This document shows positions 12,357 to 59,571 of a DNA stretch of 60,898 nucleotides, in pieces. The stretch covers positions 1 to 60,898 of IMG/VR virus record IMGVR_UViG_3300027821_000008. One strand, given 5' to 3'. Positions within the stretch are counted from its first letter, which is position 1. Each line of letters starts with the position of its first letter. This DNA comes from a virus. Its lineage: Duplodnaviria > Caudoviricetes. The position numbers were made by a program, and so were the translations under genes. The notes under the pieces were generated by a model, which had not been told where the DNA came from, searched no databases, and worked only from the letters and a program-made list of their open reading frames with translations.

Positions 12357-12364
12357 ATATTTTG

Positions 12365-12393: not shown

Positions 12394-12399
12394 ACACAC

Positions 12400-12600: not shown

Positions 12601-12666
12601 AAAATCCTTGCGCCGAATGCGCCCATCATGTAAGATGTACCCAATATCATTTGAATTGGACAAATA

Positions 12667-32315: not shown

Positions 32316-32794
32316 TGGATGGCTCCGTGGGAGTGGGTTTGGATTGTTCTAGTTTGCGTCGGGCGTGGAGGGCCTTTCCAGCATCAGACATTTTTTTTCT
32401 TGTTTCTTCTGAGGCTCTTTTTCCTATTTTTGCGTCAGACAGTTTCTTTCTATGCTCTGTCGATAGCGCCCTGCCGACCTTAATGGATCGCATTTTTTTC
32501 TTTATGCTCTTCTGTGTGAAAAGCCCTTCCGGTTCCAGTAACATTACATGTCGGGCGATAAAGACGAAGAAGCTCAAGCTCCGCGTCCCGAGCCTGTCTG
32601 TCTTGCGCTTCTGTGAAAAATCCCAAAATCTCAATGGAATACCCGCGAACTGCCTCAAGCTTCCAGTCATCTGTCCTTGCCCTTTGGTCGAACGCACGCT
32701 CGAACCACCCATATCCAATATAGAATATCTCGCCAGTATCTTTCCGGCGATGGGCATACACGACAATTTTGTTGTATGGCACTTCAATTAACAT
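32305..32794 (-). pseudogene. GIY-YIG/NUMOD3 homing endonuclease split by a frameshift
   Basis: VVYAHRRKDTGEIFYIG in one frame and NUMOD3 repeats in the +1 frame, joined at an A7 run near 32493-32499. Confidence 0.7.
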
Positions 32795-32838: not shown

Positions 32839-32867
32839 ATTATAACACAAGGAGTTACGTTTGTCAA
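32839..32867 (-). promoter_or_regulatory. sigma70 promoter
   Basis: TTGACA-17 nt-TATAAT. Confidence 0.75.
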
Positions 32868-41727: not shown

Positions 41728-42258
41728 TCAATTAATCAATAGCTTTATTATTTCTTCAGTTATGCCATAATCCTCAGCCAATTCTTTAATTGTTGACTTT
41801 TTGGAATAATATCTTGCGTAGATTTCGCAAATCTGAGCCTGCTTTAGATTGCCTAATTTTTGTGCAGATAAGAGCCTCTTTGTCTCTGTTGTGTCACAGC
41901 TTGCCGAAGTTCTTTTTTTTGCTAATTTTCTATCGGCATAGCTTTTGCTGCGACCAACATTGGCATTAACCAGGTGCTGCCAGTGCGTTGCGATCAAAGA
42001 TGCCTCAAGCTCAAATGCCTCTTTTTCTTGTGAATCCGAGAAAACCGCAATAATTGACACCATGTATCCATCAGCAGCCGCGGCCTTCCATGAGTTTAGG
42101 CGACCTATGTTGGAATATGCCCTAGATAGCCTCCCTTTACCAATATAGAATGGCACGTCTTCGTTGTGTTTAAAATGAGCGTAAACACAAAAAGAATCGC
42201 TATCAGCCGTAAAGCAAAAATCATTAATTTTATTTTCCATGATTTCAACTATTTGCAA
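41728..42258 (-). CDS. GIY-YIG homing endonuclease with C-terminal HTH
   Basis: CVYAHF...PFYIGKG; IKELAEDYGIT. Confidence 0.75.
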   Translation of the reverse strand: MQIVEIMENKINDFCFTADSDSFCVYAHFKHNEDVPFYIGKGRLSRAYSNIGRLNSWKAAAADGYMVSIIAVFSDSQEKEAFELEASLIATHWQHLVNANVGRSKSYADRKLAKKRTSASCDTTETKRLLSAQKLGNLKQAQICEIYARYYSKKSTIKELAEDYGITEEIIKLLIN

Positions 42259-42739
42259 ATGGAATGATTGACTTGAGGGCTTGTTTGAATTCTTCGTCAG
42301 ACATGGACAGCTTGGCCGAATTTACCCAATGGCATACCCATCTGCAATTATTCTTTGTATATCCTTTTGACGGATCAATTCGATCGATTGATGGGGAGAG
42401 TGGGTTTGGACCAGTCCACGATCTGATTGATGGTCCGGACACAAGCTCTGCGCCAGTTATTGCGCATACGCCGGAATATGTCATCTCTGCCCAGTCGTCG
42501 TCTAAATTAAACTGTTGAGATGATTTATCGGACCTAGTCTTTGCGCCTCTGATTATGTGCGACCACGGCCTGGCCGAGTATGATTTTTTGTGTCTTTCTG
42601 AGTCGCAAATAACGCAGCAACCATTACTTGTATAGCGGCTATTTCCGTGCCCGAATTTACATTCCATTCCGTCGTAAAATTTCAGACCCTGAGCAATTGC
42701 CTCTTTGCGACTAATGATTTTTTTATCACTCACCGCCAA
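42245..42739 (-). CDS. HNH-like endonuclease
   Basis: SRKEA..GLKFY.G.ECKFGH; SPSIDRIDPSKGYTKNNCRWV. Confidence 0.75.
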   Translation of the reverse strand: MAVSDKKIISRKEAIAQGLKFYDGMECKFGHGNSRYTSNGCCVICDSERHKKSYSARPWSHIIRGAKTRSDKSSQQFNLDDDWAEMTYSGVCAITGAELVSGPSIRSWTGPNPLSPSIDRIDPSKGYTKNNCRWVCHWVNSAKLSMSDEEFKQALKSIIPFANS

Positions 42740-43574: not shown

Positions 43575-44999
43575 TTACACGTATGATGGGGCAGGGCCTT
43601 CAAGCGGCTTGTTATCTTCGACTGGAGGTTCATATGCTGCGATGGCATCAAAGTCAAGATCAAGCGGATACTTGAACAGGTGAGCGGACTCGTTGATATT
43701 GCTTGTTGCCCACTCCAGCAGCTTTGCATACTCTTCCTGTGGCATCTTGTTTTGCATGACCGTAATTGCAGACATAACCGAGCGAAGCTTCAACTCTTGT
43801 GTCTCAATTTTCTTCGAATCTGGTTCAACAATCAGGTTAGGCCAGCGAGCATCAAACGAATCCCTCCACTGGAAGAATGCTTGCTCAAACGTCATATCGG
43901 CATACTCTGGGTTGGTAACCTGAACAGACTTGAAGAACTCAGGAGTCCATGCAACGTACTGAACAATGTTGGTCATGAAGTCATAAAGCAGATTCAGGCG
44001 ACTTCTTTCCAGCTCGATGAACAGTGCGATTGCCTTGCTGTCCTCTGAGCCATCACTGAACCCTTGAGCGAATGCCTGGGAGGTCAGCAGTCGGCCTGGC
44101 ATGCTTGCTGCGGCCGCGATTGTTTCCAGAATGTTCATGCGAGCAACCTCAAGGGCCGTGGACATGTTAGCCAGATCAACGGATTCGATTGACTCATCCA
44201 CGTCGATTGAGATTACATTGCCGGATTTAGCCTCTTTGACGACTTCGCGCTTGCGGGCGAACATTGCCATAATTCCGCGGTCAACATTGGAGCCAGATGT
44301 CTGTTTTGTCTTCGCAACCAGGACACCAGCTTTGACGGTGGCAATTTGGTCGGCAACCATGCTATACAGGAACGACTTCAGGGGATACAATGCGCGCTGA
44401 TAGACCGAGCGACCAGAGTAACCGAAAGATGAAGTGCTCCAATTTATAAAGAGCGGATCTTCGTTCATGAGCGAAAATGCCCTGCTTGGATGGAATTGTC
44501 GACCAGCAGCCACAATAACTGTCGGTTTCTGGAAGTTTTCATCCAATGGGTCTTGGCTTGTGGTATAGCTGCCAGACGTATTCATCGGGTCCAAGACGCT
44601 GAAATAGATTTCGTCAGCCCTAACCTTGCGAAGATCAACCGGCGCATTTGTTTCTTTTGCTCCACGAGCACCATACACCAGAGTGGATGTTCCGTAGATT
44701 CTGGATATACGCCACAGATTGGCAATCTGACGGTCAATGGACATTTCCTTCCACACCGAACAGAACTGCTCACGAACTCGCTCTTCAGCGGAGCACTGAA
44801 CGTGAATTTCCCTATTTTGCGACATTGCGATCTGGATTGGAGCTTCAACAAGCTTTGCGCCAAGCGGATGCAACGTGTAAATATCTTTGCACAACTGATA
44901 AGAGACCGGGTCGCCAGGGTTGATGTCCCTGGCGCCGATCATCATATTAAAGAAATCAGATGTGTTCCCAACCGAAAAGCTGGAGAAGTCATCACTCAT
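43575..44999 (-). CDS. portal protein (DUF1073-like)
   Basis: 474 aa; FHPSR, GRSVYQ and IAAAASMP. Confidence 0.85.
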   Translation of the reverse strand: MSDDFSSFSVGNTSDFFNMMIGARDINPGDPVSYQLCKDIYTLHPLGAKLVEAPIQIAMSQNREIHVQCSAEERVREQFCSVWKEMSIDRQIANLWRISRIYGTSTLVYGARGAKETNAPVDLRKVRADEIYFSVLDPMNTSGSYTTSQDPLDENFQKPTVIVAAGRQFHPSRAFSLMNEDPLFINWSTSSFGYSGRSVYQRALYPLKSFLYSMVADQIATVKAGVLVAKTKQTSGSNVDRGIMAMFARKREVVKEAKSGNVISIDVDESIESVDLANMSTALEVARMNILETIAAAASMPGRLLTSQAFAQGFSDGSEDSKAIALFIELERSRLNLLYDFMTNIVQYVAWTPEFFKSVQVTNPEYADMTFEQAFFQWRDSFDARWPNLIVEPDSKKIETQELKLRSVMSAITVMQNKMPQEEYAKLLEWATSNINESAHLFKYPLDLDFDAIAAYEPPVEDNKPLEGPAPSYV

Positions 45000-45028
45000 T
45001 ATTTACTCCGATTTAAGTTACAGTGCGA

Positions 45029-45820
45029 TTACTTCGCCCTGGTTAATCCCTTGATTCCGGCCGAACTCCATGAATGACAGTCATTGCACTGGAATCTTGC
45101 AAATGACTGACTCAATGTATGTCGCTCTCCACGACGCTGCAAATTCTTAGAGCCGCATGATGGGCAAGAATGATGCAGGTCTCTTTCCGCTTTGTGCAGA
45201 TTAATATTCGGGTGATTCTTGTACCACGGCCTAAACAACAAGTAAAGCTCCTCTGTTGATAGAACGTCAAATTCATTGTATACGCGCATCTCTCTTTGAG
45301 CCTCCGGATTGCGCGCCAGAAACTCAGTCCAAAGCGACATGCCAGGAAACTTTTTGTGCGAGTATTTCTTGTACTTTGTGCAAAGCTTATCGCTCATATA
45401 TTCAAGTTTATTGCTTGTGAATCTGAACGCACTCTTTGCCATCTTCTTTGTGTCGATGGTAATATATGGCCTTGGTGGCGGCAATCCATGCTGAAGAAAT
45501 CTTGCGTTGGCAATCTTAATATCGAAAGAGTCGGAATTCTGCCCAAGAATAATATCTGCCTCGTCAAACAATTTCCAAAGCTTTTGAATTATAGCCTTGT
45601 CGTCTCTTTGGTTTTTTTGAAGGAATGTGTCTGCATACACCATCTCAGACTTTTTATCTCCAACCCATTTTGCAGCAAATGAAAGAACAGAGGAGTCAAC
45701 CTTTATCTGATTGAGTCCAATGTTCTGATCCCACAGAGACCATACATACGCCTCAATAGGGCATAATTCGATATCAAAGCACAGAATCTTGATGCCGCTG
45801 GAGTTTTTTGCTATTGCCAT
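45029..45820 (-). CDS. RNase H-fold / DnaQ-like exonuclease with C-terminal Zn ribbon
   Basis: FDIE, GQNSDSFD, YNEFDV and CPSCGS...CNDC. Confidence 0.8.
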   Translation of the reverse strand: MAIAKNSSGIKILCFDIELCPIEAYVWSLWDQNIGLNQIKVDSSVLSFAAKWVGDKKSEMVYADTFLQKNQRDDKAIIQKLWKLFDEADIILGQNSDSFDIKIANARFLQHGLPPPRPYITIDTKKMAKSAFRFTSNKLEYMSDKLCTKYKKYSHKKFPGMSLWTEFLARNPEAQREMRVYNEFDVLSTEELYLLFRPWYKNHPNINLHKAERDLHHSCPSCGSKNLQRRGERHTLSQSFARFQCNDCHSWSSAGIKGLTRAK

Positions 45821-45861
45821 TTGATATTCCTGTTAGTTTGCGATAGCCGCGTGATAATAAC

Positions 45862-45890
45862 ATTATACCACACGACTATCGATTTGTCAA
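45862..45890 (-). promoter_or_regulatory. sigma70 promoter
   Basis: TTGACA-17 nt-TATAAT. Confidence 0.75.
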
Positions 45891-45893
45891 GCC

Positions 45894-46394
45894 TTATTGG
45901 TCTGCTTCAGAAAATTCTCTGTCAATAAACAAAGAGGCCAGCCCGCTAAGTTGCTTTAATCGCAATAACTCATCCTTATCCATACCAATATTCTTGCGAA
46001 TCCATCCGTCTGACGCCCCGGACGCAACAAGCTCAGCAACGATATTGGTCATAAGGTCGATCGAGTGACTTCCGCGTGCGCGATTGTGGCGAATCGTAGA
46101 TGCCATGCGACCCTCAATCGGCTTATCAATAACAACCACCGGCAATAGACCACCTTCTCGCTCAAATATACGCTTGCTGGTCTTCAGCGTTGTGTACCTG
46201 TGAAATCCGTCAACAATTTCGTACATATCCTCGTCAGGATAGTAATAGCACACAACTGGCATCGTATAGCCGTCTTCCCATATGCTGGTTTCCAGAAGTT
46301 TCATTTCTGGCGCAGCAACCGAGTTTGGGTTATACGCGTTTGCCCTAATTTTTGCCAGGGGGACTGCGCGAACATTATAAACTGGAGACGTCAT
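45894..46394 (-). CDS. ibrB: ParB/Srx-fold protein, IbrB/YbdM-like
   Basis: NAYNPNSVAAPEMKLL, IVDGFHR and STIRHNRARGSH. Confidence 0.85.
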   Translation of the reverse strand: MTSPVYNVRAVPLAKIRANAYNPNSVAAPEMKLLETSIWEDGYTMPVVCYYYPDEDMYEIVDGFHRYTTLKTSKRIFEREGGLLPVVVIDKPIEGRMASTIRHNRARGSHSIDLMTNIVAELVASGASDGWIRKNIGMDKDELLRLKQLSGLASLFIDREFSEADQ

Positions 46395-47695
46395 TTCGAT
46401 ATTTCCTTTTTGCGAGCGTATTTCTTTAGGGCCTCTTTGCGAAGATCGCGTTGATGCTTGGTAATTGCGAATCCCAATCTCTTACAGGTGATGTCGTTTG
46501 CAAGAATCACGGAGCAGAATTTCTTCCACGTAGGAACATCGCACTTTGTGTAAATTGCAGGAAGGTCGTCAAGAATCTTGTTGAACTTCACTACGTGCTT
46601 TTCTCCGCGACCTCTCTTGCTAAACTTCTCTGTATTTACAGCGGCTCCAGCAGGTATTTCTTTGATGTGCTGCGGCAGCATTGGAGAGCCGGTGTAATGC
46701 CAATACTTAATGTACTTTACGAACCGAGACATATAATTGTCTCTTGTGGCGGTCGGAAGCGTCTTCATCAAGAACTTGCAGTACGACTTCCACGTGTGTC
46801 CAGCAGGTAGCGTCATGTCGGCCGAACCAATTGCCTTGGTTCCACAGTAGATATTGCCGAAATTAACGCCACTAACCCTGTCAAGAAGCCTGCCCCAAGT
46901 CTCTGGTTCAATGATTCTGAACATATTCAGGCCGGCTTTTTGTTCATCTCCGAACGGCTCGCAGATGCGCATCTTTCCAAGCGCAACGCCAGCCTTGTAA
47001 AACTGATCGTATGTCTCGTTGTATGGCGCCGCAGTTTTTGCGTGATATGTCCAAATATCCTCTACAGTCCAATCGTAAATTGGGTAGAAGTTGACAGTCA
47101 GATCGGTTTTTACTACCGAATACTTTACATTCTCGAAGCGAGAAACGTCATCCCTATTCAGGGCGCGCCAACGATTCAAGCTCTCCTGCGTTCTGATGCC
47201 AACCAGTCCGGCGCACTTGCCGCCATTTTCTTTTGCGAACCAGTCGCCGAATTCAGTAATGAAGTCCTCGAATGTGATTCCTTCGTGCCAGAATCTGCCG
47301 AATGGGTTGTTATCGCTGTTGATAACATATTCAGACTCAGGCATTGGGCGAACCCATTTATCCTTCTTTTCTGGGTCCCAGAACTTCCACCAGGTTTCAT
47401 GCATGCTAACCGTATTCCAGGAGCGCATAGGAAGGCATATCCACATCGGCGTCGCAAGATGTGCATTATCCATCATAAGCTTCCAGGAGAAGTCATGAGT
47501 GCGCTTGTAGTGACCCTCAAGATCAATGAACAACGTTGTGCATTTTTTGCCAGCGCCGGCCGGGCTGCGTAGAAAGTCGTACACCAGATTAACAAGTGTT
47601 CCGCTATCCTTGCCGCCACTAAATGCAATATAGACATTGTCAAATTTAGAGAATATATACTCTATTCTCTGTTTGGCCGCGTCATAAACATTCAT
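46391..47695 (-). CDS. ibrA: PAPS-reductase-like PP-loop protein with DUF3440, IbrA/YbdN-like
   Basis: FSGGKDS, GIRTQESLNR, YPIYDW and MRICEPFG. Confidence 0.85.
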   Translation of the reverse strand: MNVYDAAKQRIEYIFSKFDNVYIAFSGGKDSGTLVNLVYDFLRSPAGAGKKCTTLFIDLEGHYKRTHDFSWKLMMDNAHLATPMWICLPMRSWNTVSMHETWWKFWDPEKKDKWVRPMPESEYVINSDNNPFGRFWHEGITFEDFITEFGDWFAKENGGKCAGLVGIRTQESLNRWRALNRDDVSRFENVKYSVVKTDLTVNFYPIYDWTVEDIWTYHAKTAAPYNETYDQFYKAGVALGKMRICEPFGDEQKAGLNMFRIIEPETWGRLLDRVSGVNFGNIYCGTKAIGSADMTLPAGHTWKSYCKFLMKTLPTATRDNYMSRFVKYIKYWHYTGSPMLPQHIKEIPAGAAVNTEKFSKRGRGEKHVVKFNKILDDLPAIYTKCDVPTWKKFCSVILANDITCKRLGFAITKHQRDLRKEALKKYARKKEISK

Positions 47696-49206
47696 TACAT
47701 GCCCTCCATATTTCCGAGTCCAATTGACACTCCATATGCAAATGCATCCACAAGATCATCAACTTGATTGTTTCTGCCAAGCTGATATTGAAATACCTGA
47801 GACATGAAATGATTTCTTGTTGAGTTCTTGAATTTCACTTGCTTGTTGTATGCGTGATCTGACAGCATTACATTTCGCAGACCCATATATCCTGTGATGG
47901 ATATTGCCCTGGTGTCCTTGCCAAGCGATGTGAACTTGGAAGAGATTGCGTTTAGCTGCCAGCCCTTCTTGGCGGCAAAAGACAGCATGGCGGTGCCAGC
48001 GGCCTTATCCTCAACCCAAATCCCAGCGCTCCCATATCTCGCCCTGCACGCAACGCTTAACTCCTCTAGGCGTGTAAGCTGCTGCGGAATCCAGTCCGTC
48101 ATCATCTCAGAGTCAAGCTGAACAACATCCCAGTCTAGAACGATCAGCGGTGTGCCGAAGTGCATTGATCTGGCAAAGAACACGATTGCGGTTCCGTCAT
48201 TCTTGTCTCCGGCCTTAAATGCTGTATCAAGGCATGCATAAACCGTATCACATGTAACTGGATATTGGCACGGAAGACCCTCGTAGCTAAGAACATCTGC
48301 TGAATTAAATAGAACGCCACCCTCTATCTCTGGTCTCTGCTGATACAGCGATGCCCATGTCCGTTTGTCGCCAAGTCTATATTGATCCCAGTGCTGAGAG
48401 TCGAACCACTCAGGCCAAAGAGATTCGCCAATCTCGCGACCCATTGGATCATTTGGCTTTTCGCAGATAGCAGGAACGCACAAAACGTCCCACATTGTGC
48501 CATCTCGACACAAAATCTCTCCAGACTCGCCCTTCCAGTCTTCTGGAAGCAGTCTGCCGGCGATATCATTTATCGACCATCTCGTCATAATCAGAACCTG
48601 AGACCCGCCAGGAATCAGACGAGACTTAATGGAGTCTGAATATTCTGCCCAAACAGAATCTTGTACAGACATAGAGTCTGCCTCTTCGCGATTCTTGACC
48701 GGGTCATCAATTATAACCATATCGGCGCGCTTACCGGTAATGCCGGTCTTGATACCTGCCGGTGTAAAGCTGCTTCCATTTTCAAGCTCAAGTCCGAGAT
48801 CAGACGAGAATGAACCCATCTGCGGCTTTGTCCCGGTCAATGTCTGATATCTCGGCGATTCAAAGATTTTCATCAGCTTCTTGGCATTATAGTCCGCATG
48901 ATCCTTGTTATAGGTTGCGAAGATAACGCGATAGCCAGGATTCATCCCCATAAAGTATGCCGGGGCAACCCATGACGCATAAGTTGATTTGGCAGAACCT
49001 GGGGGGAAGAAGATCATCAAGCGCCCGTACGGCTTTTCCATCGCATCTTTAAGCTTGTTCAGTATAAGCTCGTGGTGCGTGGCAACGCCTGCGCCATCCG
49101 GCCTGCCTGGCACGTATATCTGTCTTGCGAACTCGCAGATATCCTGTCTCGCCTTGCGACGAGAAAGAACCTCTTGAGCTGCCTTTTGTTTTGCGCTTAA
49201 AGTCAT
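47695..49206 (-). CDS. terL: terminase large subunit
   Basis: PPGSAKS, ITGKRAD..IIDDP, MTRW, DTAFK and DDLVDAF. Confidence 0.92.
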   Translation of the reverse strand: MTLSAKQKAAQEVLSRRKARQDICEFARQIYVPGRPDGAGVATHHELILNKLKDAMEKPYGRLMIFFPPGSAKSTYASWVAPAYFMGMNPGYRVIFATYNKDHADYNAKKLMKIFESPRYQTLTGTKPQMGSFSSDLGLELENGSSFTPAGIKTGITGKRADMVIIDDPVKNREEADSMSVQDSVWAEYSDSIKSRLIPGGSQVLIMTRWSINDIAGRLLPEDWKGESGEILCRDGTMWDVLCVPAICEKPNDPMGREIGESLWPEWFDSQHWDQYRLGDKRTWASLYQQRPEIEGGVLFNSADVLSYEGLPCQYPVTCDTVYACLDTAFKAGDKNDGTAIVFFARSMHFGTPLIVLDWDVVQLDSEMMTDWIPQQLTRLEELSVACRARYGSAGIWVEDKAAGTAMLSFAAKKGWQLNAISSKFTSLGKDTRAISITGYMGLRNVMLSDHAYNKQVKFKNSTRNHFMSQVFQYQLGRNNQVDDLVDAFAYGVSIGLGNMEGM

Positions 49207-50801
49207 TCGCAGCAATCTATAAAATATTTGCCATCAATTTTTCGGACGCCATGCACTGGCAATATATCTCTTCCGAGTTTATCATTTAGAGCCAAACAGG
49301 CAGAAATGTATTTAATTACAACCTCTGAGAATACTTCTCCTGGCATGATAACAGGAATTCCCGGTGGGTATGGCGCGACAATTACGCACGATATTTGTCC
49401 GTGTAATTCAGCCAAAGGCACGGGGATGCTTTTGCCAGATATCAGCGCATTATGCGCCCTGCGAGGAATCATCTCTTGGTCCGGCAAAATCGTATACGCC
49501 CAATTGCAGATGTTGATTATATCATACTCTGCAAGAGTCGTGTTAATTTCTTTTGCCGCTTGTTGCATTCCGCCAACATCACGATTGTATACAGAACAAA
49601 ACTCTGACAATGAATTAATCAACATGTCAACATAAGGACGAGGCGTTCCGACGGTAATTAATGCCAAAAACGAGTATAGGCCAACCTTTTCAACGTTAAT
49701 TCCTCGAAACACAAGGTGATCGCTAACGATGGCAGCTGGAACATTTCCGCATGTTATTGTGACCTTGGTAACGTCGTGAATTTGGAGTCCCCTCTCAAAT
49801 TGCGGAAAAGACACTCTAAAAAAGAAGTCGCTATCTTTTTCTGCGAGAAAGCCAATCTTATCTCGAATCATCATGGCAACCTTCCTTGCCTCTGCCACCA
49901 GATCACGACCAGACTCTTCCATTGCCCTGGCATTCATATCACATGAGGCGATCAGCGGATAGCTTGGTGAGGTGGTCGAGTGCATAAGATATGACTGATC
50001 AAGCGAAGGCCCATTATGTTTTCTTACGCCATCCTTAACTAAAATTTGCGATGACTGAGTGAGCGCCAACGATGTTTTATGTATTGACTGCGAAGAAAAG
50101 ATGGGGCACACATTATCAACGACATCCATTGCCCTGTATCCCCTATACCATCCAGAGAAATACGTATGAGAAGACCACGCCTCATCAAAATGAATCGCGT
50201 GCATCATAGAAGATAGCTCGTCAGATATTCTTTGGCAATTATACATAATTCCGTCGTATGTTGCCTGTGTTAATACCAAGACGGTCCGCCTATCTCCGCC
50301 CCATCCGATAAGTCGCGATTTTCCGATAGCGCTACATATATTTTCTTTTGTGAGCTGACTAGAGTCGACGCCAAGAATCTCTCCATTATTCCCGCGAGAT
50401 GGAACTAGGTACACCGGGATTGCGCCAGACTCTATTATGGCGTGCATAACAGACTTGTGACAATTTCTGTCAACAATAGCAATATCACCTTCAGACAAAA
50501 CTGAAGACACGATTATTCTGTTTGACGCAGAGGTGCCACCAACAGAGAAGTATAGCTTATCTGCTCCATACACAGAAGCGGCATAACCCTCTGATTCGGC
50601 AATGCCTCCTGAGTGTGTAAGAAGCTGCCCAAGCTGATCTACGGAATTGCATGCATCGGCAAGAAATAGATTCTTTCCAAAGAAGGACAAAAAATCAGCT
50701 GAGGCCTGACTATGAGAAAGCGCATTGCCAGAGTTATGACCAGGGCAATGAAGTGATGTTGGCGATCCGTCAGCGTATTTTTTAAGCTCTTTGAAAAACA
50801 T
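49203..50801 (-). CDS. PLP-dependent Orn/Lys/Arg decarboxylase lacking the N-terminal wing domain
   Basis: HCPGH, GTSASN, DRNCHKS, HFDEAW, QSIHK (PLP Lys), STTSPSY and PYPPGIPVIMPGE. Confidence 0.9.
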   Translation of the reverse strand: MFFKELKKYADGSPTSLHCPGHNSGNALSHSQASADFLSFFGKNLFLADACNSVDQLGQLLTHSGGIAESEGYAASVYGADKLYFSVGGTSASNRIIVSSVLSEGDIAIVDRNCHKSVMHAIIESGAIPVYLVPSRGNNGEILGVDSSQLTKENICSAIGKSRLIGWGGDRRTVLVLTQATYDGIMYNCQRISDELSSMMHAIHFDEAWSSHTYFSGWYRGYRAMDVVDNVCPIFSSQSIHKTSLALTQSSQILVKDGVRKHNGPSLDQSYLMHSTTSPSYPLIASCDMNARAMEESGRDLVAEARKVAMMIRDKIGFLAEKDSDFFFRVSFPQFERGLQIHDVTKVTITCGNVPAAIVSDHLVFRGINVEKVGLYSFLALITVGTPRPYVDMLINSLSEFCSVYNRDVGGMQQAAKEINTTLAEYDIINICNWAYTILPDQEMIPRRAHNALISGKSIPVPLAELHGQISCVIVAPYPPGIPVIMPGEVFSEVVIKYISACLALNDKLGRDILPVHGVRKIDGKYFIDCCE

Positions 50802-51358
50802 TAGATTGCTCCGGTGATTTCCTGAAACCTTTTCATGAACATGTATGCTGCCTCTCTTCTAGAAATAGGTTCTATCGTATCACGGAATGGCTCAAAATTA
50901 CCATACTTGTCAAAATATTTTTTCTGGCCCTCAGAGAGAACGTCTCGCACTTCCGTAACAAGCGCACGCATATCCGAAGTCACTATTTCGCTATGGTTTG
51001 CGGCAATGCCTATTCCATATTTTGCGAATATTGCATCAGTTACACTGCCCTCAATATCAGAATACTGAGAAAGGCGTCTTTTTAGCGGAGATGGCACATC
51101 GCAAATAAAGGCTTCTGAGGAATCATGCATTAATGCGGCAAGAGCAAATTCGCGTGGCACGTTCTGCGAAACAATAACAGAGTGCTGGGCCACGGAATAA
51201 TGCATGTAGTTTTTAACGTGACCATTAAATCTACATACGCCAGACAATCCATAGGCAATATCCTCTATTGAGAAATTGTTTGCCGATATATCGGATAGAC
51301 TAAAAAAGTCACCTGAGTGTAGACTCATTCCGTCATATGTAAGCGTTTTGTCGGTCAT
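50801..51358 (-). CDS. HD-domain deoxynucleotide phosphohydrolase (YfdR-like)
   Basis: IEDIA..LS..CRFNGH, YSVAQHS and LMHDSSEA. Confidence 0.85.
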   Translation of the reverse strand: MTDKTLTYDGMSLHSGDFFSLSDISANNFSIEDIAYGLSGVCRFNGHVKNYMHYSVAQHSVIVSQNVPREFALAALMHDSSEAFICDVPSPLKRRLSQYSDIEGSVTDAIFAKYGIGIAANHSEIVTSDMRALVTEVRDVLSEGQKKYFDKYGNFEPFRDTIEPISRREAAYMFMKRFQEITGAI

Positions 51359-51359
51359 T

Positions 51360-52223
51360 TTACTCTCCGCTGGGCGATGGCCCTAAAATCCTCATAAGTT
51401 CTTCGTCACTCATTTCATCAACATTGGATATTGCAATTGACTCACCAACAAGTCTCTCTTCGTTTTTATCGAACACTCCGTAGGCATTCCTTTCCAAGGA
51501 AATCATGGTTTTGAGCGTGTCTGATAATTGTCTAAACGAATTAACTCTGCTTGGAGTATCAATTACCTTTTTGAAAATCTGAGACATCTTATCTCTTGCA
51601 TCTTCTGAATTTTCTTCCATCAGCTCAGCAAGTTGTTGAAGCTCTTCTTTCATTACCGTCTGTCCTTCAAGCTCCTCCAGAAGCTGATCAGACAATGCAC
51701 GATACCTTGAAATTGTTTGTCTGTGAGACAGCTTCATTGCCGCAACCGCCCTTGCAGAAAACTCAAGCATTTCATCGTCAATCAGAATTCCGCCTGGCGT
51801 TGCCCTGGACTGATCTCTTAGCGCAATTGCCTCAGATTTTGCAGACTCCGTTTGCTCTGCCCTATCTCTTGCAGCCTGCTCCCTTTCACGTATAATCTGA
51901 TCGGCTCGTTCGTCAACTCTTTTTTTCAGGTCTCTTTTCCATCCAAGAGTCTTGGCTTTTTTGTTTATCGAAGTTTCGCTTACCCCGTGCTTTTTTGCAA
52001 TCTCTCTTACCGTAAGAGTAGCCATTCTGTAGTCTGACTCAACTGCATGCCAGAACTCTGGCCCCCTACCAACCCCTTCACGATATCCCCCGCGACCAGA
52101 TGATCCCACTTTTTTAACTATCTTTCCGCGTATGTCAGACGCATCAACCGCCTTCTTGAGGCGGTCTGTATCTGCATCATCAAATACAACGTCTGTTATG
52201 TCGTCATTATTTTTGTTTGGCAT
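51360..52223 (-). CDS. terS: terminase small subunit
   Basis: W.AVESDYR...TVREIAKKHGVS...AK..GWKRDL HTH; LERNAYG. Confidence 0.75.
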   Translation of the reverse strand: MPNKNNDDITDVVFDDADTDRLKKAVDASDIRGKIVKKVGSSGRGGYREGVGRGPEFWHAVESDYRMATLTVREIAKKHGVSETSINKKAKTLGWKRDLKKRVDERADQIIREREQAARDRAEQTESAKSEAIALRDQSRATPGGILIDDEMLEFSARAVAAMKLSHRQTISRYRALSDQLLEELEGQTVMKEELQQLAELMEENSEDARDKMSQIFKKVIDTPSRVNSFRQLSDTLKTMISLERNAYGVFDKNEERLVGESIAISNVDEMSDEELMRILGPSPSGE

Positions 52224-52449
52224 TTATCTCACCATGAAACAGGATTTTTCCAGACTTCTCAACAAGGATTGTGCGCGGCAAATAGTCTGCGAAATAATAC
52301 GCACCGAAATCAATAATGTCGTCTAAATTAGAAAACATATGATCCTCTCTCTCGACAATGCCAATTGTATCGCCGTTGCGATCAAATGTGGTTATTGTAA
52401 CTTCCACCTCTTTGTGGCGTTGTTTAAAAAACGGGTCGAGAAATTTCAT
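52207..52449 (-). CDS. hypothetical protein
   Basis: GAGG RBS; packed in the operon. Confidence 0.55.
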   Translation of the reverse strand: MKFLDPFFKQRHKEVEVTITTFDRNGDTIGIVEREDHMFSNLDDIIDFGAYYFADYLPRTILVEKSGKILFHGEINAKQK

Positions 52450-52467
52450 ATTGTCCTCTGGATAGAT

Positions 52468-52818
52468 TTATTGAGACTTCAGTTTCGCAATATATTCGTC
52501 GTATGTCAAGTTATTTTTTTCGGCCTCGATCTCAGTTTGCAACAAAGCAAGAATTCTCCATGCTGCTTTTGCTGTGTGCCTTAATCCGTCAGAGTCCAGC
52601 TTTCCGTGATCCATGAAGTGACGTATTGCGCTATCTGCGTGCTGAGTGCTTTTTCCCTTTGACCAATGAAGTGGCTGTCCGGGATTATGCTGATCGTTGC
52701 CTACCTGGGAAACTCTAGACACAGCCGCTAAAGCGTCAGGAAAATATGCAAGAACTCCAGTTGCAATCGGAGTCGCTTTTCTTTCTGAGTCATCGCTGGA
52801 AATTGTCAAATTAGACAT
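52468..52818 (-). CDS. DUF5664-like dATP/dGTP diphosphohydrolase domain protein
   Basis: FPDALAAVSRVS..GN..H...LHW, RH...D.DGL.H.AKAAWR.LALL. Confidence 0.7.
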   Translation of the reverse strand: MSNLTISSDDSERKATPIATGVLAYFPDALAAVSRVSQVGNDQHNPGQPLHWSKGKSTQHADSAIRHFMDHGKLDSDGLRHTAKAAWRILALLQTEIEAEKNNLTYDEYIAKLKSQ

Positions 52819-53429
52819 TATTCATCCTCGCCATTGTTAATGTCTGACAGATTGTAAATAACCCTATCAAGGAATCCATATTCAACGGCCTCTTGCGGAG
52901 ATAAGAATAGGTCCCTGTCGCAGTCCTTCACTATTTGTTTGAGCGTCTTACCTGTGTTTGCAGACATAATTTCAAACAATCTCTTGTTCAGGTATTCTGT
53001 TTCCTTTAGATCAACTCTCATGTCAACAATTGTTCCACGCGTTCCACTGCTAACTTGGTGAGCCATAATCCTGCTGTTTGGCAATGAGAAGCGCTTTCCT
53101 TTGGCTCCACCTGATGCCAAGAAGCAACCCATACTCATGGCGATTCCAGAGACAACCGTTACAACGTCATTGCTGATCGCTTGCATCATGTCGTATATTG
53201 CAAGACCAGAATAAACGCTGCCACCTGGGCTATTGATAATGAGCGTGATATCCTCTTCCGGGTCTGATGCATTCAGGTACATGAGCTGCATGATAATTGC
53301 GTGCGCGCTATCGTCGTCAACGTCTCCGTTAAGAAAAACTATCCTCTCCTTAAGCATTCGAGAGTGCATGTCATAACTTTTCTCTCCGCGACCAGATTTT
53401 TCAATAACTACAGGAACGATAGTTGACAT
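52818..53429 (-). CDS. clpP: ATP-dependent Clp protease proteolytic subunit
   Basis: VPVVIE..GRGE.SYD..SRMLKERI, INSPGG, AMSMG (Ser), IMAHQ (His) and DRD (Asp). Confidence 0.93.
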   Translation of the reverse strand: MSTIVPVVIEKSGRGEKSYDMHSRMLKERIVFLNGDVDDDSAHAIIMQLMYLNASDPEEDITLIINSPGGSVYSGLAIYDMMQAISNDVVTVVSGIAMSMGCFLASGGAKGKRFSLPNSRIMAHQVSSGTRGTIVDMRVDLKETEYLNKRLFEIMSANTGKTLKQIVKDCDRDLFLSPQEAVEYGFLDRVIYNLSDINNGEDE

Positions 53430-53485
53430 GCTTATTTCCTTTTTGGTGGGCTTGTTCATTTCAAATATGCCTAGAACGCATCAGA

Positions 53486-53767
53486 TCAACGCACAGGGCG
53501 TTTAAATTGTGGGGGTAGTACCTGTACATACCCAGATAATACAAACGCCTCTATGGCCGTTTTAACGTCTTCTTCGCTGAATTGTGCAATTACCTCTGGC
53601 TTGCACCTTGACACTGGGCCAATATGGATATCAAGCATTTCGCCCCTAATTGCCGCGTGTACATCTTCAATATCTACAGAGAATTGATCGGCTATATCCC
53701 TTACAGATAGGTGAGATGTTCTGTAGAGTTCCCTGATTGAAGTGTATTTGTCAAAGAATGATGTCAT
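53486..53767 (-). CDS. small HTH protein
   Basis: LSVRDIADQFSV HTH-like segment. Confidence 0.5.
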   Translation of the reverse strand: MTSFFDKYTSIRELYRTSHLSVRDIADQFSVDIEDVHAAIRGEMLDIHIGPVSRCKPEVIAQFSEEDVKTAIEAFVLSGYVQVLPPQFKRPVR

Positions 53768-54110
53768 GGCATGTACGTGTGGGTTTTATATATAAAAATG
53801 CGCTCTTTGCATTTTTCATTATAGTCCTTGCATTTACTTTAATATAAGCTGCTTAGCCGGCGAATGAACAAGTTCATTCAAAAGCGTAAGTTAATTTACT
53901 TTTACAAAATTTCATTAAATTGAATCATATATGAATTCATTAAAAATTACAAGTTATTTTTTTTATTATACTTATGTCTATAAAACCTTTTGTGATTCAT
54001 TCGGCCTTCGCCTCATTCATCACCAGCTTCGCTGATCGTTAAAAACATTGTGCTTTGCACTTAAAGTCAAAAACAAAACACAAACTACCTAATCAGCCAG
54101 AACCTTTATA

Positions 54111-54146
54111 TAGGGAAATAATGCCAACCTTCCCGCCCATCTTCAA
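54111..54146. repeat. 36 bp direct repeat, copy 1
   Basis: TAGGGAAATAATGCCAACCTTCCCGCCCATCTTCAA, identical to 54510..54545. Confidence 0.95.
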
Positions 54147-54152
54147 ACTATA

Positions 54153-54181
54153 ATTATATCATGCGTTTATCGATTTGTCAA
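54153..54181 (-). promoter_or_regulatory. sigma70 promoter
   Basis: TTGACA-17 nt-TATAAT. Confidence 0.8.
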
Positions 54182-54509
54182 TAGATAAACACACAAAATA
54201 CAATAAATATTACAATTTGTTACAATTTAATTGCATTTTACTCATTAAGATGATATCTATTCTTATTTGCCAGGGTGATTGGGTAACATGTAACCCACTT
54301 GTGATTCAGTGCAGCTTCGCAGCCCTTCATCACCGTCTTCGACGCTCGCAAGACTAATTTTGTATGACCTGATGACCTTCTCGGCCCATGTTTGCTTTAT
54401 GATGCAAATTGAATATAATTGGATTAAAGTGGAATTCACATTGATACTCGGCTGCGCCTCAATCAACCAAATTGTAAAATCCTGGAAGAGTGAACCCAAA
54501 CTTCGTTTG

Positions 54510-54545
54510 TAGGGAAATAATGCCAACCTTCCCGCCCATCTTCAA
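54510..54545. repeat. 36 bp direct repeat, copy 2
   Basis: Identical to 54111..54146. Confidence 0.95.
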
Positions 54546-54548
54546 CAC

Positions 54549-54577
54549 ATTATATACGAAAAAAACAACTCTGTCAA
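54549..54577 (-). promoter_or_regulatory. sigma70 promoter
   Basis: TTGACA-17 nt-TATAAT. Confidence 0.8.
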
Positions 54578-54722
54578 GTTTTATTTTTTAAAAGTGTGGT
54601 ATGAGCGCAACAAAACAACAAAAATACGAAATATTTTGAAGAAAGTATTGACTTTGGGGAAAAGTGTGGTACAATGGGTGTATGTGGCGGATACACCTGG
54701 CAATATTACGAGGAATATACAA

Positions 54723-56053: not shown

Positions 56054-59000
56054 ATGTCGTTCGTTAATCTTGCTGTATTCTCTAACTTATCTGCCCCTAT
56101 CGGCGGGGTGGATATTTTGCGCGCTATCGCATTCGCAAAGAATGACGGACAGGAGTCGATTGCGATCATAGAAAATATGTCAATGTTCGGCCTGCTACAG
56201 TTCCACAAATTGGCACTGCGCGAAGGTGTCAAGCCAATTACCGGAGCAAGATTGACATTTGGCGATCACCGAGCAATCTTCATTGCCAAGAATCATAGCG
56301 GATTCCAATACATATCTCAGGCAATATCAGCCGGCAGGCTGTCAGAGTCAGGCCATTGCTATTTGGCAGACATGAGTCAGTCAAATGACGTTGTCGTTAT
56401 TGCAGAGGCCGCTGACGCAGACTTCATCGCTGCTCTCGCAGGAAAATTCCATCACACATACCTGTCATCTGAATTCGTAACATCTTCTGGTCACGCATCG
56501 CTGGCGCCAGTTGCTGCTGTTCGTTCGGCATACTTTGTGCAGGCAGGGGAGCACGAAATGTCCGTGGCGCTTGCAAGCATACGCACGGCACAAGACATCC
56601 TAAAGCCAAACGATTCTATCTCTGTATCTGCGGCAATGACGAGTTCATCTTTCGCGCATAGCTCGCTTAAGCACATCGACGGAGCAATTGAAAACGCCAG
56701 GCAAATCGAACTGATGAGCAATTTCGTCCTGGAGCAAAGAAAGCCAGAGCTTCCGGAGTTTGGAGGACTTGACGAGAAATCCCAATTTGCACTTCTGGCA
56801 AACAATGTAAAAGAAGGATTGCAGTCTATCGGCAAGATAGATGACGAAGAATACAAGTCGAGGGCAAGATTTGAACTCAAAGTAATTCGCGAGATGGGGT
56901 TTGTTGGCTATCACTTAATCGTCGCAGATTATATCAAGTTTGCAAGAGACTGCGGAATTGGCGTTGGGCCTGCGCGTGGATCGTCTGCTGGTTCGCTCGT
57001 TTGTTACTTGATCGGTATCACACAAGTTGACCCAATAAAACACAGCCTCCTGTTCGAGCGCTATCTCAATCCTGATCGCGTCAGCTATCCTGATATCGAC
57101 ACCGACTTCGCATCTGCTGGCCGTGATCGCGTAATCGACTATCTTCTGGAAGAATATGGCGATGGTCACGTTTCCAAAATATCAACGATCGGCACATTCG
57201 GCGCAAAGTCTGCAATCAGGGCCGCATGCAGGTATCTTGGCATTGATTTTGCTCAGTCTGGCAAGATTGCTGACCTGGTGCCAAATTCACCGAACAAGAC
57301 AGTGTTGCTTGGTCGCAAAGACACAACCGAGAAATTTTGGAATGAAGTTTCTGTTGTCCCAGCACTGAGGCCAGTTGCCGAAATCGCATCTTTCATCGAA
57401 GGGCAGTGCGCCTCCATCGGTACACACGCCGCAGGCATAATTATCTCTGGCTCTCACATCAGCTCAATCGCCCCGCTAATCCCTGTCGAAGGCAGTATAG
57501 TCCCAGCAGTCGGACTGGATAAAGACGATGCGGAGAAGCTTGGTCTGGTTAAGATGGACTTGCTTGGCCTGTCAACACTTGACCTTCTTGCTCAGGCAGA
57601 AAGCGATATCAAGGCAAAGGTTGACGAAGAATTCTCTCTGAGAGAGATTGACATCAATGATGATCTTGCGCTGAGCATGTTGCGCCGCGGAATTACGAAG
57701 AGTATATTTCAGTTTGAAAGCCAAGGGATCACCAACCTGATCGCACGCGTAGAGCCAAAGCAATTTGAGGACATCGTTGCTGTGACATCCCTGTACCGCC
57801 CAGGGCCAATGGAACTATCCGAAGACTTCGTGGCAAATACGGGCGTCGCCCCACATCCACTATTACAAAATATTACAAGTGAGACGAGGGGGATTATCAT
57901 CTATCAGGAGCAGGTCATGAAGGCCGCACAGATTGTTGGCGGATTCACACTGGCAGAAGCAGACTTGATGCGTCGCGCTATGGGCAAGAAGGATGTCGAG
58001 CAGATGGGGGCCATGCGGTCTAAATTTGTTAGCGGGGCAAAGAAAAATAACGTATCGGAAGAAGATGCAAATCACGTATTCGATTTGTTGGATCGATTCA
58101 GTGGATACGGCTTTAACAAAAGTCACGCTGTTGCGTATTCGATTATCACAATGCAAACCGCCTACGTCAAGGCGCATTACCCTGAAATATTCTACGCGGC
58201 TGCAATGCAGACCAATATCGGCGACGGAGAGAAGATCGCTGCGCTTGCAAAAGAGGCCAGGGACAGCTTCGGCATCGAGGTGCTTTCGCCATGCATCAAC
58301 TCATCTGACTATCTATTCACGGCATCAAAGGGAAAAATTAGATATGGATTGAGTGGTGTATTCGGTATCGGCTCAGAGGTCATTGAGAATATATGCTTTG
58401 ATCGTGAGATTCGCGGCGAGTACAGAGACCTCAAGGAATTCATTGATAGGCTTCCAAAGATCGCCGTTCTGAAGAAGGTTGCTACCGGCCTGGCTATGAG
58501 CGGAGCATTGGATGCGTTCGGTGTGTCGCGGTCTGCAATTATCGCAACGCTGGATGAAATCGGCAAGCCAAAAAAGAAAAAGGCGAAGAAGGATTTGTTT
58601 GGGGCTGACGAAGAGGAATCATTCTCATATGTCGAGGCGGAGCAGCTGACACCAAAAGAGATATACGCTGGAGAGGTGAAGTACACTGGGATCGCATTCA
58701 GCGCGTCACCGCTTGGTATGCTCACGCGCAAGTTCAGGAAATTCGCTCCACTGACCATAGATAAGGTTGTCCCATCGGATAGGGCCATCCAGTCGGTATG
58801 CGGCGAGATCAAATCGGTGCGCAAGATCAAGACGAAGAATGGTGATGATATGTGCTTTCTGACCATTGAAGACGAAAGTGGCAGCCTGGATGCTGTTGTT
58901 TTTCCTCGCACATACGCAACAATGCCGCAAGTGAAGAAGGGCGACTTCGTGCTTGCTAAGGGCAAGGTAGATCGCGGACAAAACAAGGATGGCGCGAAAC

Positions 59001-59062
59001 AATTGATCATAGATAAATTACTTGATCAAAAGGGTGCGTTGCAGCTGATTGGAGGAGCGTGA
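56054..59062 (+). CDS. dnaE: DNA polymerase III alpha subunit (family C)
   Basis: RGSSAGSLV, FERYLNPDR..YPDIDTDF, KMDLLGL, LYRPGP, YQEQVM, FNKSHA and an OB fold. Confidence 0.95.
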   Translation: MSFVNLAVFSNLSAPIGGVDILRAIAFAKNDGQESIAIIENMSMFGLLQFHKLALREGVKPITGARLTFGDHRAIFIAKNHSGFQYISQAISAGRLSESGHCYLADMSQSNDVVVIAEAADADFIAALAGKFHHTYLSSEFVTSSGHASLAPVAAVRSAYFVQAGEHEMSVALASIRTAQDILKPNDSISVSAAMTSSSFAHSSLKHIDGAIENARQIELMSNFVLEQRKPELPEFGGLDEKSQFALLANNVKEGLQSIGKIDDEEYKSRARFELKVIREMGFVGYHLIVADYIKFARDCGIGVGPARGSSAGSLVCYLIGITQVDPIKHSLLFERYLNPDRVSYPDIDTDFASAGRDRVIDYLLEEYGDGHVSKISTIGTFGAKSAIRAACRYLGIDFAQSGKIADLVPNSPNKTVLLGRKDTTEKFWNEVSVVPALRPVAEIASFIEGQCASIGTHAAGIIISGSHISSIAPLIPVEGSIVPAVGLDKDDAEKLGLVKMDLLGLSTLDLLAQAESDIKAKVDEEFSLREIDINDDLALSMLRRGITKSIFQFESQGITNLIARVEPKQFEDIVAVTSLYRPGPMELSEDFVANTGVAPHPLLQNITSETRGIIIYQEQVMKAAQIVGGFTLAEADLMRRAMGKKDVEQMGAMRSKFVSGAKKNNVSEEDANHVFDLLDRFSGYGFNKSHAVAYSIITMQTAYVKAHYPEIFYAAAMQTNIGDGEKIAALAKEARDSFGIEVLSPCINSSDYLFTASKGKIRYGLSGVFGIGSEVIENICFDREIRGEYRDLKEFIDRLPKIAVLKKVATGLAMSGALDAFGVSRSAIIATLDEIGKPKKKKAKKDLFGADEEESFSYVEAEQLTPKEIYAGEVKYTGIAFSASPLGMLTRKFRKFAPLTIDKVVPSDRAIQSVCGEIKSVRKIKTKNGDDMCFLTIEDESGSLDAVVFPRTYATMPQVKKGDFVLAKGKVDRGQNKDGAKQLIIDKLLDQKGALQLIGGA

Positions 59063-59571
59063 TGGCTAAGCCTAACAATGACAAATATCTAGACTTTATT
59101 TCAAGATATAAAGTGAGTGAAGATGGGACGTGTGTGAGTCCTAGTGGGAAAATTCTATCTTATGGCGATAGAGGGCACGGGTATATCAGTGTCGGACATT
59201 ATAGCCCCAACGACAAAAAGGCCACGCAAGTCTTGCTTCATAGGGTGCTTGCCACTAAATTCCTGTCAAACCCACTCAGCCTTCCATTTGTAAATCATAT
59301 TGATGGAAACAAACTAAATAATTCGCTAGATAATTTGGAGTGGTGTACAAGCTCGCAAAACCAAAAACATGCGTATAGCTCCGGTCTAAAGACCCCGGCA
59401 AAGAATTGTGGAGGATACGGGAAAAAATGCATCAGGGAAACTGTATCTGGGTTTGTATATGAGTCTATCGCGTCAGCGTCCAGAAGTCTTGGCATCGATG
59501 TATCCTCTATCTCAAAATACATGAGATGCAAAGGATACCGCTTCGAATTTGTCAACGAGTCTGACAAATAA
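59059..59571 (+). CDS. HNH homing endonuclease with NUMOD1
   Basis: HRVLA..F...VNHIDGNKLNN..NLEW. Confidence 0.9.
   Translation: MMAKPNNDKYLDFISRYKVSEDGTCVSPSGKILSYGDRGHGYISVGHYSPNDKKATQVLLHRVLATKFLSNPLSLPFVNHIDGNKLNNSLDNLEWCTSSQNQKHAYSSGLKTPAKNCGGYGKKCIRETVSGFVYESIASASRSLGIDVSSISKYMRCKGYRFEFVNESDK

Follow-up and report, generated by a model that had tools for sequence, protein, structure and literature searches.

The virus genome IMGVR_UViG_3300027821_000008 is a linear record of 60,898 nucleotides (nt), rated 100% complete, which was analyzed over its entire length (the window). On its minus strand the genes for the two terminase subunits are interleaved with those for an HD-domain phosphohydrolase, an ornithine/lysine/arginine (Orn/Lys/Arg) decarboxylase dependent on pyridoxal phosphate (PLP), and a pair of IbrA- and IbrB-like proteins (IbrAB). 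On balance we favor a reading in which this is the late packaging operon of a complete, uncultured myovirus of ~61 kb, holding three unrelated accessory inserts (the decarboxylase, IbrAB and the HD protein) that are co-transcribed and translationally coupled, but that do not make up one pathway. The six genes are as follows, in minus-strand order, with lengths in amino acids (aa).

51360..52223, minus strand: terS, terminase small subunit, 287 aa (phrog_1206, E 5.6e-41)
50801..51358, minus strand: HD-domain phosphohydrolase, 185 aa, HD motif at residue 78 (phrog_318, E 1.4e-54)
49203..50801, minus strand: wingless PLP-dependent Orn/Lys/Arg decarboxylase, 532 aa (PF01276, 312 bits, cut-off 27; PF03711, 69 bits)
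47695..49206, minus strand: terL, terminase large subunit, 503 aa from the ATG (phrog_38, E 1.4e-75)
46391..47695, minus strand: IbrA-like protein with a PAPS-reductase-like PP-loop domain and DUF3440, 434 aa (PF11922, 187 bits, cut-off 25; PF01507, 46 bits, cut-off 22.5)
45894..46394, minus strand: IbrB-like protein of ParB/Srx fold, 166 aa (phrog_2159, E 8e-76)

This order and these identities had been proposed in a preliminary description of the sequence. Both are confirmed, as all six open reading frames (ORFs) lie on the minus strand at these positions and the ORF call agrees with the Pfam and PHROG family matches. The five junctions are also as described. Reading from terS they are TAA-A-ATG with a 1-nt gap at 51359, TAATG at 50801, ATGA at 49203-49206, TAATG at 47695 and ATGA at 46391-46394. 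Tight junctions of this kind are a matter of translational coupling and not of shared function. They are also common in this genome, where 21 of 59 same-strand neighbor pairs are spaced by 1 nt or less in a crude ORF call, so that five in a row are notable rather than extraordinary.

The terminase genes are assigned by their families (phrog_1206 and phrog_38), by annotated homologs and by their position before the portal gene. A tblastn search with terS gives matches in 36 phage records; of the 20 listed, the majority (HK639 and SEN34 among them) bear the annotation terminase small subunit. The longest ORF for terL begins at a TTG at 49215. Its best phage match is terL of Microcystis phage Mwe-JY13 (35.7% identity), and the Pfam Terminase_6N match is marginal at 21.5 bits against a cut-off of 22. 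The HD protein scores 23.9 bits with the Pfam YfbR-like family, under the cut-off of 25.9. It has relatives in 316 phage records, and would be the third insert, drawn from a common phage family that is annotated as deoxyribonucleoside 5'-monophosphate phosphatase.

A homologous structural module is found in Klebsiella phage Chronis, where terL is followed directly by the portal gene, then gp3 (in the position of the head-morphogenesis gene of the window) and a homolog of the phrog_6216 protein of the window. In the window IbrA, IbrB and an exonuclease gene intervene between terL and portal. Since terL abuts portal directly in Chronis, IbrAB looks inserted. Two endonuclease-like genes (PHROG) lie further down the structural module; given these and the cargo between terL and portal, the late operon appears to be a frequent landing site.

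The window contains eight perfect promoters of the form TTGACA-N16-18-TATAAT, compared with 0.03 expected by shuffling.

158-186, 5582-5611 and 12365-12393, plus strand: perfect promoters
24620-24648 and 32839-32867, minus strand: perfect promoters
45862..45890, minus strand: promoter right after the IbrB stop codon, TTGACA-17-TATAAT, 12/12 consensus matches
54153..54181, minus strand: promoter upstream of the block, 12/12 consensus matches
54549..54577, minus strand: second upstream promoter, 12/12 consensus matches

These promoters appear to split the genome into transcription units, and their number suggests heavy use of the host primary sigma factor. The two upstream of the block are followed by an identical 36-nt leader (54111-54146 and 54510-54545), set in a diverged duplication of ~400 nt in the region 53768-54600. 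Some 490 nt without an ORF separate the promoter at 54181 from the first gene at 53767; there is no Rfam match there, and the region may serve as a leader or encode a small RNA. No minus-strand terminator-like site was predicted at the gene boundaries inside the block. With promoters upstream and no terminator within, the predicted unit comprises a 93-aa ORF, the gene for a ClpP-like protease, that for a protein with the PF18909 domain, an 80-aa ORF, and terS through IbrB. The promoter at 45862..45890 is likely a new transcription start for the exonuclease and portal genes, which are thus preceded by a promoter of their own and lie beyond the predicted terS-IbrB unit.

The decarboxylase and its rarity in viruses

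The most unusual gene of the block is that of the decarboxylase, a type that, judged from the sequence collections, is almost never seen in viruses. It belongs to the Orn/Lys/Arg decarboxylase family (Pfam OKR_DC_1), with a PLP domain above threshold and with the catalytic lysine and cofactor motifs present. SIHK (containing the PLP lysine K242), GTSASN and HFDEAW are all retained, each in columns that are invariant across 10 sequences, and so are ~150 further columns that are invariant across the nine cellular homologs. Among solved structures 6q6i is the closest (E 8.1e-89). It aligns with the phage enzyme from its residue 151 onward, conserved motifs included; its residues 490-545 (~55 residues) correspond to ~18 residues in the phage enzyme. 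We take 6q6i to be the Pseudomonas lysine decarboxylase LdcA; the title of the PDB entry is 'biodegradative arginine decarboxylase'.

The wing domain of the decameric enzymes (PF03709) gave no Pfam match in the phage protein, and ahead of the ATG the reading frame stays open for just 19 codons. Of 8000 candidates scored, 4475 prove homologous at E <= 0.001. The best 119 non-self homologs listed are 35-38% identical to the phage decarboxylase, and 118 of them (741-816 aa) have the wing; the exception is a 617-aa protein labeled partial. The phage enzyme therefore shares with the winged decarboxylases of Proteobacteria (6q6i, then LdcI/LdcC and AdiA) the PLP major and C-terminal domains and the catalytic lysine, at this level of identity over the length they have in common, but differs from them in being without the wing of ~130 residues and in being encoded between terminase genes. 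Its GC content of 0.442 and codon-usage divergence of 0.083 both fall inside the range spanned by 19 further phage genes tested alongside.

The substrate is not assigned by the curated models. All six NCBIfam matches are far under their cut-offs, with 308 bits for the LdcC-type model, 287 for arginine decarboxylase, 262 for lysine decarboxylase and 259 for ornithine decarboxylase. Neither model for lysine decarboxylase comes close to its threshold (NF011928, 308 against 968; NF011929, 262 against 1056), and the protein is not placed in that class.

Relatives in viruses were sought in several collections. No PHROG family matches the decarboxylase. A tblastn search of 50,697 phage records gave 23 matches, all at no more than 30.7% identity. 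Contigs of bacterial draft genomes, 290-690 kb long, account for four, and the rest are short unannotated records and one unannotated record of 38.7 kb. In a scan of 2.9 million viral contigs, seeded with two exact peptide motifs, one of 56 matching stretches encoded a relative. This is a winged protein of 756 aa on a 12-kb contig that looks like host DNA. Scanning metagenomes gave 37 loci, all with identities of 36% or less over the full length, plus a single 1.3-kb fragment with 46% identity over 188 residues; none of these loci encodes another protein of the window. Within a group at 25-26% identity the one locus inspected lies on a bacterial chromosome, in a region that also has tmk, holB and metG. 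None of 38 loci bearing the decarboxylase has IbrAB or a terminase like that of the window.

This rarity is in keeping with a survey of virus-encoded polyamine enzymes, which in its accessible part gives arginine decarboxylase of the aspartate-aminotransferase fold as undetected in phages and viruses (PMC9992855). A survey of the gut virome includes, in the part available, lysine decarboxylase K01582 among its automatically annotated viral genes, uncharacterized (PMC13205691).

IbrA and IbrB

IbrA is identified by its two Pfam domains, both over threshold, together with the PP-loop SGGKDS. This loop (S26, G28, K29, D30, S31) is invariant in an alignment of 57 IbrA sequences, which has 45 invariant columns in all and a single invariant cysteine, C404. 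The model of IbrA has a mean predicted local distance difference test (pLDDT) value of 85.8. In the model, residues 1-262 resemble the PAPS domain of FAD synthase (Z 15.1) and CysD (Z 14.0), and also APS/PAPS reductases (Z 12.7-13.8), TilS (Z 12.8) and tRNA thiolases. In these modeled comparisons the fold group spans adenylyl transferases, reductases and adenylating enzymes, so the predicted fold does not pick an activity. The C-terminal DUF3440 half, modeled only within the full protein, gave no structural match, which is no verdict on the novelty of its fold. A sequence search of the PDB with IbrA found no match at E <= 0.1.

Two specific activities were considered and rejected. As a DndC phosphorothioation enzyme IbrA reaches 33.4 bits with TIGR03183, against a cut-off of 290.4. 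As a PAPS/APS reductase (CysH) it reaches 25.5 against 165 bits (TIGR00434) and 21.3 against 254 (TIGR02057), and only the fold is common. Scanned with the PADLOC defense models, IbrA gave weak partial matches to DndC (residues 164-231 only) and BrxP, and the other five proteins scanned gave none. In the accessible parts of the sources the DndB/DndC and DpdB/DpdA systems are like IbrAB in combining a partner of ParB/Srx fold with an enzyme, and DndC is also PAPS-reductase-like (PMC12839542, PMC10853773). Unlike those systems, the window has no DndA, DndD, DndE or DpdA-like gene in Pfam and PHROG scans.

IbrB has the ParB N-terminal fold, a DGxHR motif and a gene adjoining that of IbrA. It carries the motifs DGFHR and RMASTIRHNRARGSH, while with Pfam ParB_N it reaches 20.7 bits, under the cut-off of 26.3. 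The model (pLDDT 81.7) matches Noc, ParB and KorB over their nucleotide-binding N-terminal and helix-turn-helix domains in Foldseek at E 7e-7 to 1e-5, with weaker matches to the serine kinase SerK and sulfiredoxin. Compared with the window protein, IbrB is 61-76% identical in 33 viral homologs, and IbrA 36-48% in 56, which makes IbrB by far the better conserved of the two.

A complex of IbrA and IbrB is predicted, in which the invariant tail of IbrB makes the link. The modeled complex scores 0.72, against 0.00 for the best control; 58 of 80 solved complexes and 2 of 110 mismatched pairs reach that mark, counts that are rough, own alignments having been used. At least 68% of contacts recur between runs, with partner pLDDT of at least 67. 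The predicted contacts are made by the IbrB tail, residues 141-165, with IbrA residues 208-236 and 1-7, and both segments are rich in invariant columns. The contact residues at such columns are D208, D213, W215, N226, Y229 and G236 in IbrA, and D141, E142, R145, Q148, G151 and F156 in IbrB. IbrAB probably act on DNA; the tail of IbrB would hold IbrA and bring the PP-loop enzyme to it. The preliminary description knew of no established biochemistry for IbrAB, and none was found in the literature or by the PDB sequence search. To our knowledge the only functional report on IbrAB is that of Sandt et al. in 2002, where the proteins, whose name comes from E. coli ECOR-9, are said to activate prophage eib genes.

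As far as can be judged from gene neighborhoods, IbrAB is a self-contained cassette that is independent of the decarboxylase. Relatives of IbrA occur in 223 phage records at 34-47% identity. Six of these were inspected (Streptococcus CHPC1230, Fusobacterium phiFN37, Pseudoalteromonas XCL1123, Microcystis Mwe-JY13, Escherichia PhiR5_2 and Mycobacterium Gaia). Each has a ParB-like gene next to that of IbrA and none has a decarboxylase in view; the contexts are post-lysis, replication or recombination. Viral contigs gave an IbrA relative in 583 of 591 candidate stretches. We retained 80 loci, of 4,177-21,275 nt each, and searched them by tblastn with the window proteins. IbrB was found in 78, DnaB in four, terL and the exonuclease in one each, and the decarboxylase, the HD protein and terS in none.

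Collapsing at 90% IbrA identity left 60 loci. Here, on each flank, the closest two ORFs with a length of 70 aa or more, 218 ORFs in all, were compared with the PHROGs in two batches (150 ORFs from 40 loci at E <= 1e-5, and 68 ORFs from 20 loci at E <= 1e-8). A neighbor in DNA, RNA and nucleotide metabolism is present in 42 of the 60 loci (30 + 12 in the two batches), and a helicase of phrog_62 or phrog_16 in 17 (13 + 4). A head-and-packaging neighbor, of a terminase family, is present in 2 of the 60, and the decarboxylase in none. Elsewhere IbrAB thus occupies mostly replication and recombination modules or moron positions, while here it lies between terL and portal. IbrA precedes IbrB in 41 of the 60 loci, as it does in the window; the order is reversed in 11, the genes are on different strands by the ORF call in six, and IbrB was not found in two. 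The gap between the genes is 25 nt or less in 19 of the 41. CHPC1230, Gaia and PhiR5_2 have both proteins in this order and with overlapping codons, as here.

Two side observations were made on these loci. In 22 of the 41 loci with IbrA before IbrB, 330-990 nt lie between the genes, which leaves room for an extra small gene. In phiFN37, at 10748-13057 and ~3 kb downstream of IbrAB, there are a second ParB-like gene, a gene like that of queuine tRNA-ribosyltransferase and a queuosine-precursor transporter; by analogy this looks like an arrangement of the DpdA/DpdB type.

Diamine supply, DNA modification and the alternatives

The preliminary description had offered, as its weaker alternative, that the decarboxylase supplies free polyamine for the condensation of DNA. 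For this gene it is the reading that we favor, with the reservation that its packaging role is drawn from position and timing only. The decarboxylase would be an active PLP enzyme of the aspartate-aminotransferase fold that makes a free diamine. Cadaverine from lysine would be the likeliest product, given that the nearest solved relative is 6q6i, presumably LdcA. Made in step with terminase, the enzyme would provide more small cations to condense the DNA during head filling, and without the wing domain it would probably escape the regulation tied to the decamer in its cellular relatives. The chemistry of IbrAB, of whatever kind, would not need the phage-made diamine. Phages package polyamines, which are thought to bind nucleic acid and help its compaction, and T4 takes up cadaverine anaerobically, according to the available part of one account (PMC7226272).

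Several points weigh against this reading of a packaging operon with unrelated inserts. The place of the decarboxylase between terminase genes and its timing carry the packaging role, and tight junctions are as frequent as 21 in 59. The curated models name no substrate, the activity being read from the sequence. Exact-motif seeding can overlook divergent viral decarboxylases. The decarboxylase has no phage relatives, so there is no test by co-variation of its independence from IbrAB. Many of the surveyed loci are short, and a gene absent from the flanks may be elsewhere in the genome, while in other phages IbrAB could use host polyamines. The score of the predicted IbrA-IbrB complex is a confidence of the model and not a measurement. 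Lastly, the stretch is present in one sequencing run only, possibly its source.

The diamine could serve something other than packaging, such as late translation or replication, host physiology (through amino-acid depletion, pH or porin block) or counter-defense, and we allow this a smaller though appreciable chance. Polyamine enzymes are widespread in viruses and linked to translation and replication in the accessible parts of two sources (PMC9992855; PMC7226272), and the operon has other cargo unconnected with packaging, namely the HD protein, the PF18909 protein and the exonuclease. On the other hand, stop/start overlaps between terS and terL tie the dosage of the decarboxylase to that of terminase, even if position is a weak argument where inserts are common.

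It is rather unlikely that IbrAB works as a co-activator of phage transcription instead of as an enzyme on DNA. The name and the report of 2002 on eib activation speak for such a role, the predicted fold of IbrB matches the transcriptional regulator KorB and Noc, and a consensus promoter follows ibrB directly. Yet the invariant PP-loop and the many invariant residues in 57 IbrA sequences suggest catalysis, and the usual neighbors are helicases, nucleases and recombinases.

The interpretation preferred in the preliminary description was that of a packaging-linked DNA modification. IbrA would adenylate a base or the backbone, IbrB would target DNA, and the phage diamine would be attached covalently, giving cationic DNA that packs more easily or resists nucleases. 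We consider this improbable. It draws on the single translationally coupled block with no internal promoter or terminator predicted, on the intact PP-loop of IbrA in a fold group that includes the amine-ligating TilS (Z 12.8), on the ParB-like and DNA-binding fold predicted for IbrB, and on the fact that no chemistry of IbrAB is established in the literature or by the PDB search. The survey suggested along with it, for IbrAB co-occurring with a decarboxylase, went the other way. There is no decarboxylase in any of the 80 viral IbrA loci and no IbrAB in any of the 38 decarboxylase loci, and hundreds of phages keep IbrAB without a decarboxylase. Nor does the link to packaging hold up, as IbrAB mostly sits among replication and recombination genes (42 of 60 loci, against 2 of 60 with terminase), and in the window itself terL stands between the decarboxylase and IbrAB. 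A fuller version, in which a deregulated decarboxylase raises the diamine pool and IbrA-IbrB attach this diamine (or, in other phages, polyamines of the host) to DNA in an ATP-dependent manner at replication or packaging, is given the same low standing. If it were true it would provide the first chemistry for IbrAB and a new class of cationic DNA modification.

A weak argument against modification of the whole genome comes from its six-base palindromes, several of which are strongly avoided. CTGCAG occurs once where 18.8 are expected and TGGCCA not at all where 16.6 are expected; after correction for 64 words the Poisson probabilities are ~9e-6 and ~4e-6 respectively. GAGCTC (0 against 8.9) and AGATCT (0 against 7.3) are also avoided. 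This would be expected of DNA visible to restriction enzymes, and the avoidance suggests that type II restriction systems have exerted selection in the past.

Known routes to modified bases were considered too. Pfam and PHROG library scans of the window ORFs gave no thymidylate-synthase-like enzyme, nucleotide kinase, glycosyl or amino-acid transferase, gene of the DpdA/QueC type or PurZ. Thymidine hypermodification by way of 5-hydroxymethyldeoxyuridine was rejected because the hydroxymethylase, kinase and transferase families are missing in these general library scans, in which the specific families were not targeted. A 2-aminoadenine (Z) genome was rejected because there is no match to PurZ or adenylosuccinate synthetase, leaving only the PF18909 domain and a weak match of the HD protein (phrog_7076, E 1.3e-5). 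The DNA of phage phiW-14 contains a diamine-linked base, alpha-putrescinylthymine; that phage needs the 5-hydroxymethyl-dUMP route, for which the window has no recognizable genes.

PLP-dependent decarboxylases take part in thymidine hypermodification in phages ViI and M6, and the decarboxylase might likewise trim an amino acid already appended to a DNA base, but this is very improbable since the Pfam and PHROG scans gave no hydroxymethylase, nucleotide kinase or amino-acid transferase and the enzyme retains the full architecture and conserved residues of decarboxylases of free amino acids. We place equally little weight on an assembly chimera or a decaying host fragment, suggested by the decarboxylase being unique to this phage in the collections searched, because its gene overlaps phage genes by stop/start codons on both sides, matches the phage in composition, has an intact frame with conserved catalytic residues, and appears with the same sequence from a second assembler, possibly on the same run.

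The surrounding genome and the place of the operon among known systems

The genes on either side of the block, in the same predicted transcription unit (the first two) or beyond it (the last two), are as follows.

52818..53459, minus strand: ClpP-like prohead protease (PF00574, 226 bits; phrog_94, head maturation protease, E 6.6e-54)
52468..52818, minus strand: 116-aa protein, N-terminal domain of dATP/dGTP diphosphohydrolases (PF18909, 46.8 bits; phrog_27780, E 1.6e-37)
45029..45820, minus strand: 3'-5' exonuclease, 263 aa, between IbrB and portal (phrog_403, E 9.1e-91; PF13482, 32 bits)
43575..44999, minus strand: portal (PF06381, 63 bits; phrog_146, E 5.5e-48)

The 116-aa protein is the N-terminal domain alone, without the MazG part, in a genome without PurZ. 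The family of the exonuclease, phrog_403, is annotated 'DNA polymerase exonuclease subunit'. The replicative polymerase is a homolog of the alpha subunit of Pol III (56054-59062, plus strand), and the phrog_403 exonuclease is encoded 10 kb off in the late operon.

By Pfam and PHROG scans the gene content is that of a contractile-tailed phage, with sheath, baseplate J, portal, terS and terL. The phage encodes a replication set of DnaB, RecJ, the Pol III alpha subunit and the separate exonuclease. Its structural module is like that of myoviruses of ~45 kb from Klebsiella, Yersinia, Pantoea and E. coli. At 37908-38924 the crude ORF call picked a plus-strand ORF of 356 aa; a 338-aa ORF on the minus strand suits the synteny with gp6 of Chronis and, on that basis, may be the major capsid protein. 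At least eight homing-endonuclease-like genes of the HNH, NUMOD or GIY-YIG type are spread over the replication and structural modules, and an ArdC-like protein is encoded near the left end; its family, phrog_7245, is annotated 'anti-restriction protein'.

1366-2025, 9020-9733, 15205-15690 and 18094-18615: homing-endonuclease-like genes, first four (Pfam/PHROG)
32305-32787, 41728-42258, 42245-42739 and 59059-59571: homing-endonuclease-like genes, last four (Pfam/PHROG)
2079-2693, plus strand: protein with an ArdC-like zincin metallopeptidase domain (PF18818, 69 bits; phrog_7245, E 8.9e-24)

The sole Rfam match in the whole window is a tRNA. Megablast of the 6.3-kb block against the reference phage collection gave no DNA-level match, and scans of viral contigs with the decarboxylase and terL as queries confirmed no close relative. 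The single sequencing run that contains the stretch is labeled soil metagenome and is possibly the source sample; no RNA run is among those listed as containing it. A second assembly of the same run has one contig of 48,591 nt that covers 44000-54140 with 0 differences. As the run may be the source sample, this assembly is not independent support.

Like the virus polyamine enzymes described before, the decarboxylase is a virus-encoded enzyme that would be expected to yield a polyamine precursor. Those described, in the accessible part of the survey, are alanine-racemase-fold and pyruvoyl-dependent decarboxylases, whereas the phage enzyme is of the aspartate-aminotransferase fold (PMC9992855). 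The novelty thus lies mainly in the decarboxylase, as a new fold class among virus-encoded polyamine enzymes. If active, it would add an Orn/Lys/Arg class of aspartate-aminotransferase fold to the polyamine enzymes known from viruses. Its location between terS and terL makes testable the old idea that small polycations limit or assist packaging in vivo. IbrAB is present in hundreds of phage genomes, where it is often annotated as a sulfur-metabolism gene, and the conservation of IbrB, the predicted binding mediated by its tail and the neighborhood of helicases and recombination genes offer starting points for its biochemistry.

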